Source: Escherichia phage REP2. Taken from it: a stretch of 64,000 nt of DNA. Location: sequence record OQ174501.1, one strand, 5' to 3'. The notes under the pieces were generated by a model. The model did no database searches, was not told where the DNA came from, and saw only the letters and a list, made by a program, of their open reading frames with translations. This document shows positions 40,662-49,785 of this stretch, piece by piece; the stretch's first letter is position 1; every line of letters starts with the position of its first letter. Both the position numbers and the translations under genes were made by a program.

Positions 40662-41990
40662 ATGCAACTGAATAATCGTGATTTAAAAAGTATCATTGAT
40701 AATGAAGCATTGGCTTATGCTATGTACACGGTTGAAAATCGTGCTATCCCAAATATGATTGATGGATTTAAGCCAGTTCAACGATTTGTTATTGCTCGAG
40801 CTCTTGATTTGGCACGAGGAAATAAAGATAAGTTTCACAAACTCGCTTCTATTGCAGGTGGTGTAGCAGACCTTGGATATCATCATGGTGAAAACTCTGC
40901 ACAAGACGCAGGTGCTTTGATGGCTAATACTTGGAATAATAACTTTCCTCTGTTAGATGGTCAAGGAAACTTTGGTTCTCGTACCGTTCAAAAAGCAGCG
41001 GCAAGTCGTTATATTTTTGCTCGTGTAAGTAAAAATTTCTATAGCGTATATAAAGATACTGAATATGCTCCGGTACATCAAGATAAAGAACACATTCCGC
41101 CTGCTTTCTATTTGCCTATTATTCCTACTGTTCTTCTTAATGGTGTTTCCGGTATTGCAACTGGTTATGCAACTTATATTCTTCCTCATAGTGTTTCTTC
41201 TGTCAAGAAAGCTGTATTGCAAGCTCTTCAAGGAAAGAAAGTAACTAAACCGAAGGTAGAATTTCCAGAATTTCGCGGTGAAGTCGTTGAAATTGACGGT
41301 CAATATGAAATTCGTGGAACGTACAAGTTTACTTCACGAACTCAAATGCATATCACTGAGATTCCGTATAAGTATGATCGTGAAACTTACGTGAGCAAAA
41401 TTTTAGACCCGCTTGAAGATAAAGGCTTTATTACGTGGGATGATGCTTGCGGTGAGCATGGGTTTGGCTTTAAAGTTAAATTCCGTAAAGAATACTCTTT
41501 GAGCGATAACGAAGAAGAACGCCATGCAAAAATTATGAAAGACTTCGGGTTGATTGAGCGTCGTTCCCAGAATATTACCGTCATTAATGAGAAAGGAAAG
41601 CTGCAAGTTTACGATAATGTAGTTGATTTAATCAAAGACTTCGTTGAAGTTCGTAAAACTTATGTCCAAAAACGAATTGATAACAAAATCAAAGAAACTG
41701 AATCAGCATTTCGTTTAGCCTTTGCCAAGGCGCATTTCATTAAGAAAGTAATTTCAGGTGAAATTGTTGTGCAGGGTAAAACTCGCAAAGAACTGACCGA
41801 AGAACTTTCTAAAATTGATATGTATTCTTCTTATGTTGATAAACTAGTCGGAATGAATATTTTTCATATGACTTCCGACGAAGCAAAGAAACTTGCTGAA
41901 GAAGCTAAAGCTAAGAAAGAAGAAAACGAATATTGGAAAACTACTGATGTAGTTACCGAATACACTAAAGATTTAGAGGAAATCAAATGA
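40662..41990 (+). CDS. 52: DNA topoisomerase II medium subunit gp52 (GyrA-like)
   Basis: 442 aa; GyrA-type breakage-reunion domain. Confidence 0.9.
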   Translation: MQLNNRDLKSIIDNEALAYAMYTVENRAIPNMIDGFKPVQRFVIARALDLARGNKDKFHKLASIAGGVADLGYHHGENSAQDAGALMANTWNNNFPLLDGQGNFGSRTVQKAAASRYIFARVSKNFYSVYKDTEYAPVHQDKEHIPPAFYLPIIPTVLLNGVSGIATGYATYILPHSVSSVKKAVLQALQGKKVTKPKVEFPEFRGEVVEIDGQYEIRGTYKFTSRTQMHITEIPYKYDRETYVSKILDPLEDKGFITWDDACGEHGFGFKVKFRKEYSLSDNEEERHAKIMKDFGLIERRSQNITVINEKGKLQVYDNVVDLIKDFVEVRKTYVQKRIDNKIKETESAFRLAFAKAHFIKKVISGEIVVQGKTRKELTEELSKIDMYSSYVDKLVGMNIFHMTSDEAKKLAEEAKAKKEENEYWKTTDVVTEYTKDLEEIK

Positions 41991-42136
41991 GTCCATTCAT
42001 AGGTATTACAAGCGCTGCATTAGTATCTGGTGGCATTTTACTGGCGGGTTTAGGTGTTGTTCCTGCCGTAGCAGGAGGTCTTCTTGCGTTCGGAATTCAA
42101 CGTGTTATCATGATAGTTATCACAGTCATGCAGTAA
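41987..42136 (+). CDS. tiny hydrophobic membrane peptide (49 aa)
   Basis: ATGA-coupled to the gene 52 stop; glycine-zipper-like GGILLAGLGVVPAVAGGLLAFG. Confidence 0.35.
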   Translation: MSPFIGITSAALVSGGILLAGLGVVPAVAGGLLAFGIQRVIMIVITVMQ

Positions 42137-42140
42137 TTTT

Positions 42141-42167
42141 AGGGAGAGCCTCGGCTCTCCCTTTTTT
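42141..42167 (+). terminator. rho-independent terminator (GGGAGAGCC...GGCUCUCCC plus U6)
   Basis: agggagagcctcggctctccctttttt. Confidence 0.75.
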
Positions 42168-42191
42168 ATTTTAAAATTTTTTCACAAAACG

Positions 42192-42221
42192 GTTTACAAC
42201 CAAAGCATACTGTGGTACTAT
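42192..42221 (+). promoter_or_regulatory. T4-type early promoter (cassette copy)
   Basis: gtttac, 18-bp spacer, tactat; leader ctatcaaataaatgaactgaaac repeated at 42567-42590. Confidence 0.5.
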
Positions 42222-42270
42222 ACAACTATCAAATAAATGAACTGAAACAAACAACCCGGAGATACAAAAA

Positions 42271-42498
42271 ATGAAATTTAAAATCGAAAACGAAATCGTT
42301 AAAGCTAAAAATGCTCTGACTGCTAACAAACTGGTTGTAGATGGTATTGAATATGATATCTGTGGAGTTCGTGAAGAAAAACCTGGTGTTCTGACTTTCT
42401 TCACAATGATTTTTAAATTTAAAGGTGACACAGAATTCAAACAGTTTGATTTTGCCCATGAAGACGAAATCGAAGTTCGTAATCTGAACATTAAGTAA
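42271..42498 (+). CDS. hypothetical small protein (motA.1-like position)
   Basis: 75 aa ORF. Confidence 0.45.
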   Translation: MKFKIENEIVKAKNALTANKLVVDGIEYDICGVREEKPGVLTFFTMIFKFKGDTEFKQFDFAHEDEIEVRNLNIK

Positions 42499-42537
42499 GT
42501 ACTTTATTAGAGCTCTTGAAAAAGAGTGCAAAAAAGT

Positions 42538-42566
42538 GTTTACTTCTGCTTTAAACATGATACTAT
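42538..42566 (+). promoter_or_regulatory. T4-type early promoter for motA
   Basis: gtttac, 17-bp spacer, tactat. Confidence 0.5.
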
Positions 42567-42603
42567 AGACCTATCAAATAAATGAACTGAAACGGAGATT
42601 AAA

Positions 42604-43239
42604 ATGTCTAAAGTAACTTACATCATCAAAGCTTCTAACGATGTTCTGAATGAAAAAACTGCTGCGATTTTAATTACCATTGCTAAGAAAGATTTCATTA
42701 CAGCCGCAGAAGTTCGTGAGGTGCATCCAGATTTAGGTAATGCAGTAGTTAATAGTAATATTGGGGTATTGATTAAAAAAGGCCTGGTGGAGAAATCTGG
42801 TGATGGATTAATCATTACTGGTGAAGCTCAGGATATTATTTCAAATGCAGCAACTTTATACGCACAGGAAAACGCTCCGGAACTGCTGAAAAAACGAGCA
42901 ACTCGTAAAGCTCGCGAAATTACTTCTGATATGGAAGAAGATAAAGACTTCATGTTAAAACTTTTAGATGAAAATGGATTTGTTCTTAAAAAGGTTGAAA
43001 CTTACCGCAGTAACTATCTCGCTATTTTAGAAAAACGCACTCACGGAATTCGTAATTTTGAAATTAACAACAATGGAAATATGCGAATTTTTGGATACAA
43101 AATGATGGAACATCATATTCAGAAATTTACTGATATCGGAATGTCATGTAAAATCGCTAAAAACGGTAATGTGTATCTTGACATTAAACGCTCGGTAGAA
43201 AACATTGAAGCTGTAATCACTGTAGCATCTGAACTGTGA
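42604..43239 (+). CDS. motA: middle transcription activator MotA
   Basis: 211 aa; size and position match T4 motA. Confidence 0.8.
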   Translation: MSKVTYIIKASNDVLNEKTAAILITIAKKDFITAAEVREVHPDLGNAVVNSNIGVLIKKGLVEKSGDGLIITGEAQDIISNAATLYAQENAPELLKKRATRKAREITSDMEEDKDFMLKLLDENGFVLKKVETYRSNYLAILEKRTHGIRNFEINNNGNMRIFGYKMMEHHIQKFTDIGMSCKIAKNGNVYLDIKRSVENIEAVITVASEL

Positions 43240-43249
43240 GGAATAAATA

Positions 43250-43579
43250 ATGAACAAGTTAGAAATTGTCAATGAACTTCGTCGTTGTGCAGAACCCACT
43301 CAAGAGGGGTGGGACATCTGGTACCATGGAGCTTATCTTGGAACTATCGTAAAGATTAAGACTGGTAAATACATGATTATTCGTGAAAGTAAAGATGCTC
43401 CAGTAGGTATTCGCAATAATTTTATGGCAGCGATAAGTTCATTTACGGATGCAGCTTACGAAATTTACCTTGCTGATTATAAAGAATTCCAGGAATCTCA
43501 ACCAGTTATTCGTTCAATTGGTGTTAACAAAGCTCAACAGAAAACTTTGTGGCAGCGTATTAAAGGATGGTTTAAATGA
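43250..43579 (+). CDS. hypothetical protein
   Basis: 109 aa ORF. Confidence 0.45.
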
Positions 43580-44040
43580 AAACATTTGAAGAAAGACTTG
43601 AAATGCTAAACGTTGCATTATCTCGTGAGACTCCAGAGAGTTTAGCCGAAAAATTTAAATCAGCAGGTTATACTAATTATACGGAAGAAGATGTTCTGAA
43701 AGAAGTTCCTGAAATCTGTTGGCAGCCTGCATACTGGGATGAAAACCAAAAGTATCAACGACGAATTGTATGTGCTGCTAATCGGTTTAAATTAAAGGAT
43801 GGTGGAACTCTTGTTATTCCTGGTGCTCGTCATTATTCTAAAGATATGGCAGCAGTTTTAGATGTAGTTAAACCTCAATTAGTTACTCAACAAGTTTGTG
43901 ATGATGACCAAGGGTTTATTGACCAATATAGTAATTATTGGACACGTGAAGAAGCAATGATTATTGCAACTTACGCTGGACAAGTACGTATTGAACGTGG
44001 TGGTAGTGAAAAAGAACTTTACTCTGAGGACCTTTACTAA
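43576..44040 (+). CDS. hypothetical protein
   Basis: 154 aa ORF. Confidence 0.5.
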
Positions 44041-44336
44041 TGAATATTAAAAAGTTTCAAATTGATGGAATTATGAATCAAATCCAGGCGCTGGAATATG
44101 CCAATAAAATGATGTCAACTAATTGGGGAATTTATACCAATGAACCGGGATTTAAATTCTGTGATATGGAATTAACTAAAAAGCTCGTAGGAAAAGATTA
44201 TGTATGTCCATTTAGTTCTCCAGTAAATGGAATGTTAAAACCTGCTTTACGCGATCTTTATATTGCGATGAACGAAGAAATGATAAAAGAATTAAAACGT
44301 CAACTGAAGGTGATTCAATTTGGCCAGGGAAATTAA
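44040..44336 (+). CDS. hypothetical protein
   Basis: 98 aa ORF. Confidence 0.45.
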   Translation: MNIKKFQIDGIMNQIQALEYANKMMSTNWGIYTNEPGFKFCDMELTKKLVGKDYVCPFSSPVNGMLKPALRDLYIAMNEEMIKELKRQLKVIQFGQGN

Positions 44337-44538
44337 TTCAAAATCTGACTATTTTAATTCTCTCAATGATAAAGATAAAAATCTAATACGGCATTTTATT
44401 GTTGAGATGGGATATATTGATACACGTGATTTAAGAGAACATATATTTGAATGTGGTGTAGCTAAAAAGTTTTCATTCACATGCAAATGTTTGAGAGAGG
44501 TAATTCAGCACTATGAACAATTTAGTCGCAAAACATAA
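44320..44538 (+). CDS. hypothetical small protein
   Basis: 72 aa ORF. Confidence 0.35.
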   Translation: MAREINSKSDYFNSLNDKDKNLIRHFIVEMGYIDTRDLREHIFECGVAKKFSFTCKCLREVIQHYEQFSRKT

Positions 44539-44621
44539 TTTTAATAAAGCTTCTGTTCATAAGGATAAGAAGAAAGCGTTTAAAGAATCTAATCGCAAAC
44601 AGAAACATAAGGGGAAGGTCT

Positions 44622-44900
44622 ATGATTATTGATTCTCAATCTGTGGTTCAATACACAATCAAAATTGATATTCTAGAAAAGCTATATAAGTTTCTACCAA
44701 ATTTATACCACTCAATTGTTAATGAATTAATTGAAGAACTACATCTTGAGAATAATGATTTCTTGATTGGAACTTATAAAGACCTCTCAAAAGCAGGATA
44801 TTTTTACGTAATTCCAGCTCCAGGAAAAAGTATTGATGATGTATTAAAAACTATAATGATTTATGTCCATGATTATGAAATTGAAGATTATTTCGAATGA
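44622..44900 (+). CDS. arn: Arn-like acidic protein (anti-restriction DNA mimic position)
   Basis: 92 aa acidic ORF adjacent to asiA. Confidence 0.5.
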   Translation: MIIDSQSVVQYTIKIDILEKLYKFLPNLYHSIVNELIEELHLENNDFLIGTYKDLSKAGYFYVIPAPGKSIDDVLKTIMIYVHDYEIEDYFE

Positions 44901-45049
44901 GTCATAATCTTGAAAAAGTAATCGAGCATAATGTAGCTCAGGAACGCGAGTCGTTCAAGGAATTCGTAGAAAAAATTTTTGAAGAAAATAACACAGACCA
45001 GTTTACAAATCAAGCGTCTGATGATATTATAATAAAGTCAACTAATTGA
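44897..45049 (+). CDS. hypothetical small acidic protein
   Basis: 50 aa ORF, ATGA-coupled to the arn stop. Confidence 0.3.
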   Translation: MSHNLEKVIEHNVAQERESFKEFVEKIFEENNTDQFTNQASDDIIIKSTN

Positions 45050-45061
45050 GTGGTATAGTTA

Positions 45062-45334
45062 ATGAATAAAAACATTGATACAGTTCGTGAAATTATTACT
45101 GTTGCGTCTATTTTGATTAAATTTTCCAGAGAAGATATTGTTGAAAATCGTGCTAATTTTATTGCATTTCTGAATGAGATTGGAGTAACGCATGAAGGTA
45201 GAAAGTTAAATCAGAATTCATTCCGTAAAATTGTTTCTGAATTAACCCAAGAAGATAAGAAAACCCTCATCGACGAATTCAACGAGGGTTTTGAGGGTGT
45301 ATATCGATATCTAGAGATGTATACAAACAAATAA
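45062..45334 (+). CDS. asiA: anti-sigma70 factor AsiA
   Basis: 90 aa; size and position match T4 asiA. Confidence 0.8.
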   Translation: MNKNIDTVREIITVASILIKFSREDIVENRANFIAFLNEIGVTHEGRKLNQNSFRKIVSELTQEDKKTLIDEFNEGFEGVYRYLEMYTNK

Positions 45335-45991
45335 TTATTTAGCCCTTCCTAATATTCTGGCCGCCTGAGAACATATTGATTCAAGGCGGTCATTACTTAT
45401 ATGATCATTTCTATACCAGTACATGGTTATTGTTCCAGCATAGATATTATCCAAATTGAAATATGGACAACTGTACATGTAATTTATTTCGGGAGTAGGC
45501 TTTTTAGTTGGTAAAAAAGCAAATTTTGAGTCGGAATAATAATGACGTCCATTTAAATGAACTGCATATTCATCCATAGTTTTATCAACAGGATATCCTC
45601 CAAGTGATTTTTCGCTTATTGTTGAAGGTAATTTTCCTTCGTATGCTATAATATCAACAAAATAGTTTAAGTTTTTAGGGCGGAAAGAATATACCGCACT
45701 AAAGTCTGCCTCAGATGATATATGAACTATCTGGAGTTGTTCCAGGGCGACAGATTCAAAGCGTGCATTTCTTTCCTTTTCAATAATTTCGCTGTATGTT
45801 TCATACTTTGATTGCTTATAGTACTCAAAGAAACTATCTCCCCTATACCAAACAATCGCCATTATAAACAAAAGAATTACGACAGCTACCCGGGAAGCAA
45901 GAACTTTCCCGGTAGCATTATCTTTGAACAAGCGATCTAGAACACCAAATAGAATATCAGAGGGCGAAAATGATATTCTAGGTGCTGCCAT
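45335..45991 (-). CDS. t: holin T
   Basis: 218 aa; single N-terminal TM segment and large periplasmic domain; adjacent to gene 38. Confidence 0.85.
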   Translation of the reverse strand: MAAPRISFSPSDILFGVLDRLFKDNATGKVLASRVAVVILLFIMAIVWYRGDSFFEYYKQSKYETYSEIIEKERNARFESVALEQLQIVHISSEADFSAVYSFRPKNLNYFVDIIAYEGKLPSTISEKSLGGYPVDKTMDEYAVHLNGRHYYSDSKFAFLPTKKPTPEINYMYSCPYFNLDNIYAGTITMYWYRNDHISNDRLESICSQAARILGRAK

Positions 45992-46021
45992 AGACCCTCC
46001 TTTTAAGGGTATTTATTCACA

Positions 46022-46804
46022 TTATACTCTTGGACCATATATTGCTCCAACATTTTGCCATGTTGGAGCGGACCCTATGACAGCATAACCAGCAGCACCG
46101 CCATCATATTCAGATCCTTGACCGCGAATATTGCATCTACCTCCCGCGGAACCTACTTCACCACCGTTTCCGCCATTATAGATACCATTCACGGATCCTG
46201 AGCCAGGTGCAGAAATAGTACCACCAGTCGCGCCTGATTGCATATCAATAGATCCGCCTGGCGCACCAAAAGGACGACCGCCACCGCCGCCAAAGGTCAA
46301 TCTCATTTGTGAAAAAGGAGAATAATATCCGCCGCCACCGCCACCGCCGCCGCCTGCAATAGCTCCGCCATTATTAATTCTTAGTCTCCCACCAATATCG
46401 TTTTGAATACAATGACCCCCAGCTGAGCCAGGACTATTGCTACCACCATTACCTCCACGACCATACATCGTTACGCCATGTATATTTAACTGAACATATT
46501 CATTTGGTGTATCTCCGTACATGAAGAATAAAGGAACATCTTTAGAATATGATACTAAATCACCTGTAATATTAAACACTATAGGTGCACTACCGGCCTC
46601 AAAACATCTATCTCGGAACCATTGACCATTGAAGTTATGGTCTGCTCCAAGTGTATGAATAATTTCTCGTGAGCGACCTGCAAATTGACTCATCCAGCAA
46701 GGAACACCCAATCTTAATTGACCAGCCGCTTGACTCATCCATCGTTGCCCTGTTTCATTTGCGGCTGAACTTCCAATCCAACCAGGAACACCAACTACTG
46801 CCAT
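46022..46804 (-). CDS. 38: gp38 long-tail-fibre tip adhesin, T2/T6 type with glycine-rich motifs
   Basis: 260 aa; poly-Gly runs (GGGGGGGGG, GGGGG) separating variable segments; downstream of gene 37. Confidence 0.8.
46085..46459 (-). repeat. glycine-rich motif region of gp38 (GGN-type low-complexity coding repeats)
   Basis: runs such as ccgccaccgccaccgccgccgcc on the plus strand encode poly-Gly. Confidence 0.6.
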
Positions 46805-46839
46805 AATTTATCTCCAAAGGGGGCGTTGCCCCCTTGTTG

Positions 46840-49785
46840 TTAGAATTTAAAATATTTACTAATTTTGCGAGCAATTTTAGTAAAGAAAGGAGTTTTCAAT
46901 TCTTTAATTTCTTCACTCATTTCCTGAATAGCCTTAATTAAAAGAGCATTCACAGCAGAGTTAGAAATTGTCAGAACATCAGATCCATCAACTTCAACTT
47001 TAGATACAGCTTCCGGTAATTCCTTTTCAAGGTCCTGAGCAATAATACCAACTTCACGTTTAATAACGCTACGGTCTTTAATAGACTTAACTTTATCGTA
47101 AATATAAACTTTCAGTCGGCATACTTTTTCGACTGCTCCATATTCTAATTCTTCTTTATTAATCTTGAGACGGGAGTCAGAACGAATATACACATCGCTA
47201 AAGCTACCATTTCCTGGTGTATAAAAGAATCCATCATGATGGAATTCAAACACAGCTTGTGGGTGTCCAGCATCAGGAGAAGCCTCCGTGGATCCGACAC
47301 GAATGATTGCTTGCCCCCACTGTGATGGAATACGACGCATACCAAAGTCAACAGCGGTGCTATATCCTTGATTGGTTATAACGCTTCTTGCTTTAAGAAT
47401 AGGATAATAACAATCCTGTGAAACATAACCATGATCAACGAATAATGGAGCTTCTACTCGCCATTGGTTGCCCCAATCACCCGGTTGTCTAGCAATCCAT
47501 CCAGAACCGTTAATGTGTACACGGTCGCGGTTAACGTTAACCATTGCGGTATTTTGCGGGTTTAACGCAATCTCACCATTGTTTGTGATATGTACTGCCG
47601 CCTGAGAAGCATAGCTATAAAATGCTAGCGAATTATCAGCACCACCCTTGCCAATATACCAGTTACCAGTCCCGTCTATGTCACCGCGAATATGCAAAGA
47701 ATTACTAGCAGTTGTTGATAATACAATAGAATCATTAGGTGCATTGATTGTTAACCGACCTGTCATCGTATCACCGCCTTTACCTACGCGAGTATTCAAG
47801 GCAGCATCTAAATTTGTCGCATTGTTATATTTCTTCCAGATTGAACCGGCAATATTACCATCTGTATTAAGGAACGCATCACCGACATATACACGTCCTG
47901 GAGATTTAAAATAACCTGACGGCATGAAAGTCCATTGTTTTAACCCATCTGCTGTTCCATTAGCGGATAAATCACCCTGAGCAATGATCTTATATTCGGA
48001 TGTACCTATAGCCATACCAGTGGCAAAGGTGATATTACTTACAGTATTTTTCTGTTTAACAATTGGCGCAAACTGGTTTTTATTTGAATCGTCAATAGCC
48101 TGATATAATGGCGCAATGGTAGTATTCTGATTTGCGTAAGTATTAGAACCAGAACCGCTAGCAGGGGCTTGAATATATGCTCCTGGAGCAAGTGAAATTT
48201 TCTGATTAGCACCAAGATTAACAGCAGCAGTGATATTCAGCAATCCCCTAAAGTTTTGTTGAGCAGTCCAAGTATGTGATCCGTCTTCAAGAACAACACG
48301 GCGACAAGTATTAGTCCTACTTCCTGGATTACCAGCGATACGAACAACGAAATAACGGTAGTTTGTCTGGGATACAGTACCGCGCCAAACCTGAACAGTA
48401 CGCCCTGTGCCAGTGTGTTCGCTAGGACCAACGGAAAACATAACCAAGTTTCCGTCAATCGTCCCCCAATCCATATTTGCTGGCATGTTCTTTATTTTGT
48501 TCAAAGGAACGCTAAACATACTACCAGGAACAAAATCAAAGGTTTGCCAATCTAACTCCGCTAATTGAGCTTTAATACCACCCATACCCAAAGTAATTGG
48601 CAGAGAGTAAGATGTATATACTTCGTTCCATGCACCCCACGCACCACCAGTATATGCACGCTCAAAAATACGTCCGCGAGTAGTTGCGCCTGTTCCGGCA
48701 GTAGTAAATTTTTGGAAAATAGCACCACCAGAAGCACGCTGTTTAACTTCCAGCAAACCAACAATAACAGGCGGCAAACCTTCACCTGTAGGGCAGTTAA
48801 TAACGGCATCGGTGCCTAAAATATTATATAACCCAGGAGTTTTAAAATCATTAAGGTCACCATCATAGAAAGTCGCTGGTGTGCCATGACCAACCTGCTT
48901 CCATTCCTCCCACTTAGGTGCACTAGCATCCCATGCAGCAGCGAGACAACGAGTATAAACCATACCCATGCGGGTAGTATAACGCTGAGTTCTCGTGTAT
49001 AAACCACCTTCAAATATTTCTAAAAATCCTTGTGCGGCTGATCCTTCTTCTGGATAATGGCGATCAAATGATGCGATTGCGCTTGAACTGTTTCGCCATA
49101 AGCCACAATGTTCTAATTCTCCCAAGCTATCAAGGTCAATCGTTTGTGAAAGTGGACGAGTTGACGCTTGAACATTACGCCACACACCCCATGGACCATC
49201 GACGCCATTCCATTTAGCAGATAAGGAACGAATATAGACGTTACCAGATCTTACAGTATAACGCTGAGTGCCAGCAAATTGGCCGGCCACAAACACTTCT
49301 AGTACACCTACGGCATTTTCTTCTGGGAATTTATTTGCTGGTTGCGCATTTGTTGAAGTAGATTTCGACCAAACACCAAGATATTCTTCAATGGGCCCAT
49401 ACGTATCTAAATTAGCATCAGTAGGTAATTCGCCATTATTTTTTATAAATGTTGTGCTATTGACATTTATGTCAGATGGAGTTAAGGTAATGTCTTTTGA
49501 CCCATCAAAAGATATACCATTAATTTTCCTAGGTGTTTGCAATTTAGTAGCTGTGCTAGAATTTCCAATTAAAGTTCCAGTTATATTTTCTGTAACCTCT
49601 AAAGACCCATTTATAGTTCCTCCATATTTTAAACCTAATTCTATAACACTACCTGAGTCATCTTTTGTGAAAATTGTTTTATCTTTTAAGTTTATAGCCA
49701 ATTCACCTTCGGCTAATACTGAAGCAGCAGGACGTTGACCTGCAGTTTTGCTTCTTTTAAATTGTATTTGTTTTAAAGTAGCCAT
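46840..49785 (-). CDS. 37: long tail fibre distal subunit gp37
   Basis: 981 aa fibrous protein between genes 36 and 38. Confidence 0.85.

Follow-up and report, generated by a model that had tools for sequence, protein, structure and literature searches.

The arn.4 to arn.1 genes of phage T4 are already known, as named genes without known function, and count among the catalogued 'dark matter' of the T-even phages. In phage T2 they were reported to form, together with arn, one abundant middle transcript (arn.4-arn.3-arn.2-arn.1-arn); the functions of arn.1 to arn.4 were given there as unknown and a counter-defence role was called only 'conceivable' (10.64898/2026.06.19.733364). A literature search on arn.4 to arn.1 found them discussed only in this preprint, which gives no function. 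Here, the corresponding genes of Escherichia phage REP2 (sequence record OQ174501.1) are described. They occupy a 1,289-base stretch, positions 43,250 to 44,538 of the window, i.e., of the 64,000 nucleotides (nt) of one strand that were analysed. The stretch is colinear with T4 arn.4 to arn.1 and belongs to the T-even 'arn operon', downstream of motA, of which it forms the promoter-proximal part. The operon runs arn.4, arn.3, arn.2, arn.1, a 39-codon gene of the DUF7230 family, and then arn; the first five are closely packed, with start codons that abut or overlap the gene before. The four proteins are probably conditionally useful, early accessory proteins directed at host factors, in counter-defence or host takeover; a counter-defence role is plausible and is the leading guess.

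Gene order and flanking genes are shared between REP2 and T4, and protein identity is 88-99%. The two loci differ in that REP2 keeps a full arn.4 of 109 amino acids (aa), which is damaged in T4 and also in T2, and in the allele of the N-terminal module of Arn.3, which is about 70% identical to that of T4. The T4 annotation also shortens arn.1 to 43 aa and omits a 39-aa gene, both of which are present in full in REP2. In database notes the genes also carry the older names motA.-1 to motA.-5 and asiA.2 to asiA.7. The earlier note had presented the four open reading frames (ORFs) as candidates for new functions; since they are named T4 genes, their novelty was overstated, and the finding itself adds little. 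Its useful by-products are the re-annotation of arn.1 and arn.4, an overlooked DUF7230 gene, a consequence for the published ArcZ/RNase E model, and the T4_Y16D family.

Coding status, conservation and database labels

Four ORFs of 109, 154, 98 and 72 aa on the + strand had been proposed in the earlier note, and all were found in the ORF list (examined over positions 41000-47000 of the window) exactly as described. Their position between motA and the arn/asiA genes was likewise confirmed by Pfam profiles of the flanks (PF09114, PF09158, PF22134 and PF09010; see Table 1). Consecutive ORFs overlap by 4, 1 and 17 nt, which is consistent with translational coupling, and the overlapping starts with their Shine-Dalgarno sequences fit the single arn.4-arn transcript reported in T2. 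Each ORF had a PHROG family of its own (E-values from 1e-38 to 1e-73), three of the four being labelled 'unknown function'. Comparison with T4, Mosigvirus ATK47, Kanagawavirus CIP9 and a Merlin-like phage showed that third codon positions carry most substitutions in every ORF. On this comparative evidence, the arn.4 to arn.1 ORFs are real genes, not chance ORFs. The small proteins that they encode are under purifying selection and without hydrophobic segments; predicted isoelectric points (pI) were 9.2 for Arn.4, 4.8 for Arn.3, 8.9 for Arn.2, 8.5 for Arn.1, 10.2 for the 39-aa peptide and 4.55 for Arn. The whole stretch was 100% identical in Shigella phage CM8, Yersinia phages PYps32T and PYps47T, and Escherichia phages REP3, BW-1 and HEMP5, and a DNA search for near relatives matched it in 643 phage records, 483 of which cover at least 80% of it.

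Arn.4 matched phrog_1594 over residues 1-109 (E = 2.5e-54) and, by tblastn over 109 codons, shared 99% identity with the T4 locus, with 0, 0 and 11 differences from T4 at first, second and third codon positions. The start ATG is ATA in T4, where the 41 codons thereby 'lost' differ only by synonymous changes. In the T2 record (MH751506) a 2-bp deletion shifts the frame and splits the gene into pieces of 35 aa and 68 aa (locus 416-743). Among 55 clusters of homologues, all of which carried PF26821, every one was 107-119 aa long except the T4 form (68 aa). Judged by these alignments, the 109-aa protein is the normal form of Arn.4, and the T4 and T2 lesions, which concern window positions 43250-43375, are independent; they suggest relaxed or negative selection on arn.4 during laboratory propagation.

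An AlphaFold2 model of Arn.4 (predicted local distance difference test, pLDDT, 81.9) began with a helix and a five-stranded sheet, continued with a long helix and ended, after a disordered linker, in a basic amphipathic C-terminal helix; the alpha/beta domain was delimited at residues 1-83 and the C-terminal helix at residues 100-107. Models were compared with the Protein Data Bank (PDB) by Foldseek, where E <= 1e-3 or a convincing template-modelling (TM) score was taken as the threshold. Arn.4 had no neighbour in the PDB (best E = 0.42, TM = 0.31). An alpha-beta-beta-beta-alpha fold resembling a double-stranded RNA-binding domain (dsRBD) was considered and rejected, as the Dicer dsRBD, YkuJ, FERM/PH and T7 Gp1.2 were all matched at E >0.4. 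A marginal match of Arn.4 to REase_II was recorded in PADLOC-DB 2.0 (E = 0.003). Profile-profile comparison showed no relation between Arn.4 and Arn.2, and they were not accepted as paralogues.

Arn.2 matched phrog_1844 over residues 1-97 (E = 4.7e-51); its identity was 98% to T4, 64-67% to Merlin-like phages and 40% to Mosigvirus, and it was absent from Kanagawavirus CIP9. A fifth conserved gene, not in the earlier list, begins before arn.1 ends and extends past the start of arn. It encodes a lysine-rich peptide of 39 aa that matched DUF7230 (PF23876) at 44.9 bits (E = 1.2e-11; gathering threshold 27 bits) and phrog_1359 (E = 5e-23). This gene showed protein-level conservation in four genera, with a third-position bias, and in a distant DNA search it was the most widely conserved piece of the region, extending to Klebsiella, Enterobacter and Dhakavirus phages. 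It is annotated in T2 (RB32ORF249c) and not in T4.

DUF7230 and the 29-residue similarity of Arn.3 to PD-T4-9_B in PADLOC were the exceptions among family-library scans of the ORFs that otherwise stayed at noise level: local sequence and profile searches of Pfam, NCBIfam and the PDB returned nothing significant for any of the four proteins, and Arn.2 and Arn.1 were negative in both kinds of search against the PDB. The statement of the earlier note that no motif could be assigned held for characterised families, and failed for two newer Pfam entries without a function, PF26092 on the 154-aa ORF and PF26821 on the 109-aa ORF. In a large protein database these entries were found on every Arn.3 homologue and every Arn.4 homologue, respectively; the empty scan of the two proteins was due to the absence of both entries from the Pfam version used. 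The name of PF26092, 'T4_Y16D', comes from the uncharacterised T4 protein itself. Remote homology search and structure prediction, which had been proposed as a check, assigned no function, and neither the Arn.3 nor the Arn.4 model had a fold neighbour in the PDB. Clear homology to housekeeping or structural proteins, which had been named as the finding that would speak against an accessory role, was not seen, nor was homology to virion proteins, in Pfam, NCBIfam, PHROGs or the PDB.

Many GenBank and UniRef entries, and phrog_4452 among the PHROGs, label these ORFs 'anti-restriction nuclease'. The label goes back to the positional names (arn.N) and is backed by no evidence. The DM_Arn profile (PF22134) matched none of the four ORFs, and only the ORF at 44622-44900, i.e., arn itself. 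Arn resembles the four products in being small, early and reported on the same transcript, and Arn.3 is similarly acidic (pI 4.8 against 4.55). However, there is no sequence similarity between Arn and the products of arn.4 to arn.1; three of these four are basic, and the acidic Arn.3 is unrelated to Arn in sequence.

Dispensability, gene content and the motA/asiA neighbourhood

The earlier suggestion of an accessory role was supported by two genome-wide screens of T4, in which all four genes were dispensable, and by the arn.4 lesions of the laboratory strains T4 and T2. In CRISPRi-ART, arn.1, arn.2, arn.3 and arn.4 were all scored 'Not Fit' (PMC11879866, suppl. file 15); for arn.1 and arn.4, the guides targeted the starts of the shortened forms that are annotated. 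In HIDEN-SEQ all four were scored 'Non-essential', with 13/13, 21/22, 33/34 and 16/16 TA sites hit (10.1101/2025.11.20.689424, suppl. file 7), and asiA was essential in the same experiment (10.1101/2025.11.20.689424). Dispensability in K-12 in both screens, combined with a location in the takeover and anti-restriction region, makes the four genes reasonable candidates for host-specific functions.

Gene content varied between genera. The arn.4, arn.3 and 39-aa genes persist in Mosigvirus, Kanagawavirus and Merlin-like loci; arn.1 persists in the first two and gave no match in Merlin-like loci. No tblastn match to arn proper was obtained in Mosigvirus, Kanagawavirus or Merlin-like loci, where its place is taken by an ORF of about the same size. 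Since the arn.4, arn.3 and 39-aa genes persist without a detected arn, it is not arn that defines the unit conserved around motA and asiA. In one related viral contig an extra ORF of 51 aa (1882-2034) lies between arn.4 and arn.3, which marks this junction as an insertion hot spot. Accessory status is supported both by this insertion and by the varying gene content.

In the mechanism that we favour, each arn.N protein would act during early infection, and its target would be a host component that not all hosts possess. The mode of action would be counter-defence or host takeover, exerted through stoichiometric binding or through a small-enzyme activity. Arn.3 would be the best candidate for a defined activity, given its invariant polar residues, tandem duplications and fold matches to polyvalent proteins (see below), and Arn.4, Arn.1 and the 39-aa peptide, being basic, may have nucleic acid or the acidic surfaces of proteins as binding partners. 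Several points weigh against this interpretation. None of the four proteins matched a known defence or anti-defence family, save for an N-terminal similarity over 29 residues between Arn.3 and PD-T4-9_B. In PADLOC-DB 2.0 there was no full-domain match and only two partial ones (Arn.3 and Arn.4), no dedicated anti-defence library having been searched. The view of Arn.3 as having a polar pocket is drawn from sequence conservation alone. The main text of the HIDEN-SEQ study, which screened defence-bearing hosts for conditionally essential T4 genes and reports new anti-defence genes, omits the arn genes (10.1101/2025.11.20.689424), and one of its comparisons gave no effect for them (10.1101/2025.11.20.689424). 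Finally, the occurrence of arn.4, arn.3, arn.1 and the 39-aa gene beside motA and asiA, without a detected arn, fits transcription takeover at least as well as defence evasion.

This last observation is the reason why the main rival is a role in the MotA/AsiA system. The four proteins would then be auxiliary factors of sigma-appropriation or of early-to-middle mRNA control, and would tune transcription or RNA fate. The order motA, arn.4, arn.3, (arn.2), arn.1, 39-aa gene, asiA.1-like gene, asiA is kept in Tequatrovirus, Mosigvirus and Kanagawavirus, even where arn was not detected; Arn.4, Arn.2, Arn.1 and the 39-aa peptide are basic (pI 8.5-10.2); and the transcript itself is targeted by Hfq/ArcZ and RNase E (preprint 10.64898/2026.06.19.733364). 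Yet arn.1 to arn.4 tolerate insertions at nearly all TA sites, whereas asiA does not share this dispensability, and no helix-turn-helix, sigma-binding or RNA-binding family was detected in the four proteins. Furthermore, arn.4 is defective in both T4 and T2, and both phages still run the middle programme. On balance, we regard a MotA/AsiA role as unlikely.

The T4_Y16D domain of Arn.3

Arn.3 matched phrog_839 (E = 2.8e-73), and PF26092 was present on all 110 clusters of homologues. The protein divides into a variable N-terminal module and a T4_Y16D core, a domain of about 95-110 aa with the motif G-x-RH ... QGFIDQ ... R-EEA ... GQ ... L-x-SEDLY. An AlphaFold2 model, for which an alignment of 35 sequences was the input, was confident (pLDDT 88.8, predicted TM score 0.71), and placed three N-terminal helices before a beta-beta-alpha-beta-beta-alpha core. 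By Foldseek it had no neighbour in the PDB (best E = 0.31, TM = 0.23). A degenerate deaminase-like fold was considered and found to be unsupported, because cytidine-deaminase and APOBEC chains were matched only at E-values of 2-5 and TM scores of about 0.2. Among the predicted viral structures of BFVD there were 23 matches at E <= 1e-3. These were uncharacterised, save for three proteins labelled 'large polyvalent protein associated domain' (LPD) and one doubtful 'polynucleotide kinase' label.

A hidden Markov model search of 1.84 billion representative proteins with T4_Y16D returned 3,562 clusters at 50% identity, 1,534 of them at E <= 1e-10. Among the best 150 of the 3,562 clusters, about half were stand-alone domains of less than about 125 aa, and some tandem duplications and C-terminal fusions were also listed. 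The extra regions of ten long T4_Y16D proteins contained no Pfam domain. When 76 diverse members were aligned, R85, H86, G113, F114, R124, Q136, S150 and E151 (Arn.3 numbering) were invariant; the polar residues of this set suggest a phosphate- or nucleotide-binding pocket, or a catalytic one. Scans of individual members against Pfam (35 members) and PADLOC (76 members) revealed no recurrent weak family. The neighbourhoods of distant members were only of a generic early or nin-like phage type, as in a Stutzerimonas lambdoid prophage, where the domain is flanked by DUF3310 and RusA within an accessory region of nin-like type. As a large family that is spread across phages, is confidently modelled and has no relative of solved structure, T4_Y16D is a worthwhile target for structural and biochemical work.

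The N-terminal module behaved differently from the core. Within Tequatrovirus the first 44 residues of Arn.3 were 68-70% identical, against 95-98% for the cores. Residues 1-29 gave a partial match to the N-terminus of the defence-system protein PD-T4-9_B in PADLOC (E = 1e-6), where the SRETPESL motif recurs. A motif of the SRETPESL type was also found inside an otherwise unrelated acidic, proline-rich protein of 320 aa from Klebsiella phage Geezett, and in one homologue of Arn.3 the module was duplicated.

The domains of the polyvalent proteins of phages and conjugative elements ('large polyvalent protein associated domains') were reportedly described by Iyer et al. in 2017, and a role in host conflict is ascribed to polyvalent proteins. 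In BFVD, the core model of Arn.3 matched parts of three polyvalent proteins (E = 9e-4 to 1e-2). However, these matches were weak (TM = 0.35, normalised to the full 154-aa query) and Arn.3 is free-standing; none of the LPD families in Pfam matched Arn.3 in the Pfam scans. A second comparison, a functional analogy only, is with the small 'sponge' proteins of phages and with their small anti-defence enzymes (Tad1/Tad2, Acb1/Acb2). As in that case, T4_Y16D is a stand-alone domain of about 90-125 aa in most relatives, is widespread in unrelated phages and is dispensable; it has conserved basic and aromatic residues, and its tandem duplications suggest oligomers. Nevertheless, no similarity in sequence or fold to the solved sponges and enzymes was detected. 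We tentatively propose that the T4_Y16D core could be an unrecognised, widespread effector, a new sponge or enzyme of anti-defence, whose conserved R-H/R/Q/S-E pocket would either bind a host molecule derived from a nucleotide or destroy it, and that the fast-evolving, exchangeable N-terminal SRETPESL module might dock the core onto a host or defence protein.

The same residues could be read as evidence that Arn.3, and possibly its neighbours, serve the phage's own DNA as enzymes of nucleotide or DNA metabolism (hydroxymethylcytosine handling, repair or recombination). The invariant R/H/R/Q/S/E set looks enzyme-like. The neighbours of the domain in a lambdoid prophage include a DNA methylase, RusA and a RecA-dependent nuclease, and fragments of thymidylate synthase are encoded a few genes away from it in another phage contig. 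On the other hand, arn.3 is dispensable in T4 and shows no similarity to a known nucleotide-metabolism fold, while the phages that carry the domain differ widely in DNA chemistry, and by fold it also occurs in polyvalent proteins. Such a role is improbable, and an activity of Arn.3 on a host component is preferred.

The start of arn.1, the ArcZ and RNase E sites, and flanking features

T4 annotates a 43-aa arn.1, starting at the ATG equivalent to 44407 and preceded by a gap of 70 nt, and the T2 record annotates no arn.1. In REP2 the ORF extends upstream to a TTG at 44320. Of the variable sites within the 87 nt from this TTG to the internal ATG, 8/8 were synonymous in the TTG frame (11 Tequatrovirus sequences). 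The N-terminal extension is kept in Mosigvirus, with an ATG start (MMRIIDSKADYFNSVNDKNKALIRHFITEMGY), and in Kanagawavirus, which has Leu at the position of the internal Met (...KYFITELGY); an alignment of five sequences showed N-terminal residues that were invariant across three genera. The family phrog_4452 covers residues 1-72 of 72 (E = 5e-38), and the short form constitutes a separate family, phrog_6212. A Shine-Dalgarno sequence, AAGGTGA, is found at 44307-44313, 6 nt upstream of the TTG, and the internal ATG has only an abutting GAG. Hence there is very little chance that the 72-aa ORF is a mechanical extension of a real 43-aa arn.1 over a non-coding spacer, or that not all of the ORFs are genes, an explanation which the T4 and T2 annotations, the TTG start codon and the placing of an RNase E site in the spacer had favoured, and which the comparative data already largely refute. 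Read from the same comparisons, the 72-aa, TTG-started form is the true arn.1 and the '70-nt intergenic region' of T4 is coding.

This affects the interpretation of the T2 transcript. The host small RNA ArcZ was reported to pair with arn.2 at +285..+294 and thereby to protect the transcript from RNase E (10.64898/2026.06.19.733364), which acts at GcAUU, 11 nt upstream of the annotated arn.1 ATG, within the '70-nt intergenic region' (10.64898/2026.06.19.733364). In REP2 the ArcZ site has the position given in the preprint, and it comprises both the last codons and stop of arn.2 and codons 2-5 of the long arn.1, so that its sequence conservation may partly reflect dual coding. The 10-nt complement of ArcZ occurs at chance frequency, there being three such 10-mers in the window, and it is only partly present at the Mosigvirus junction; an unconstrained RNAduplex scan for ArcZ gave no discrimination. 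The significance of the site rests on the RIL-seq data of the preprint. The published mutation of the RNase E site, GcAUU to GcAGG, would change Arn.1 by H25Q and F26V, and both residues were invariant in five aligned sequences. The 'intergenic' model would thus operate inside coding sequence and at a translation start, a conclusion from sequence that we hold more likely to be right than the effector proposed above for T4_Y16D. The 72-aa arn.1 changes how the 2026 report on stabilisation of the transcript by ArcZ is to be read.

The features discussed above and the flanking genes are collected in Table 1.

Table 1. Positions of the genes, domains, RNA sites and flanking features in the 64,000-nt window of phage REP2
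Feature	Positions	Strand	Basis and remarks
arn.4 orthologue	43250-43579	+	109 aa, ATG start; ORF list, phrog_1594
arn.3 orthologue	43576-44040	+	154 aa, ATG start; ORF list, phrog_839
Arn.3 N-terminal three-helix module	43576-43707	+	residues 1-44; variable, motif SRETPESL
Arn.3 T4_Y16D core domain	43708-44037	+	PF26092
arn.2 orthologue	44040-44336	+	98 aa, ATG start; ORF list, phrog_1844
arn.1 orthologue, long form	44320-44538	+	72 aa, TTG start; ORF list, phrog_4452
ArcZ pairing site CCAGGGAAAT	44324-44333	+	perfect complement of AUUUCCCUGG in MG1655 arcZ
Reported RNase E motif GCATT	44391-44395	+	11 nt upstream of internal ATG; codons 24-26 (R-H-F) of long arn.1
39-aa DUF7230 gene	44513-44632	+	Pfam DUF7230 (PF23876), phrog_1359
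arn, downstream flank; DNA-mimic inhibitor of McrBC	44622-44900	+	PF22134 DM_Arn, E 1.2e-53
asiA, downstream flank	45062-45334	+	PF09010, E 1e-42
motA, upstream flank	42604-43239	+	PF09114 and PF09158, E 1e-61 to 1e-66; annotation of identical phage REP3
gp52 topoisomerase	40662-41990		profile match

A strict pattern for MotA-box promoters gave no site directly upstream of arn.4; the core of the MotA box, GCTTNA, occurs at 42548 and 44244, where its spacing to the -10 element was judged to be off. An Rfam scan of positions 41900-45400 returned nothing credible. Upstream of motA, an ORF of 75 aa at 42271-42498 (phrog_10955) is an insertion relative to T4 (region 42141-42498). Ahead of this ORF lie a strong terminator hairpin (42141-42162) and an early-type promoter, TTTACA-17 nt-TACTAT (42193-42221). 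This layout of hairpin, promoter and small ORF is reminiscent of the mobile promoter/stem-loop cassettes of T4-type phages.

Profile matches placed holin T and a gp38 adhesin on the opposite strand in this neighbourhood. The gp38 gene, at 46022-46804 on the - strand, encodes a glycine-rich tail-fibre adhesin of the T2/T6 type (PF05268, PF21721), rather than the assembly chaperone of the T4 type, and it coincides with a GC-rich island, where GC content rises to 0.495 compared with about 0.33 nearby.

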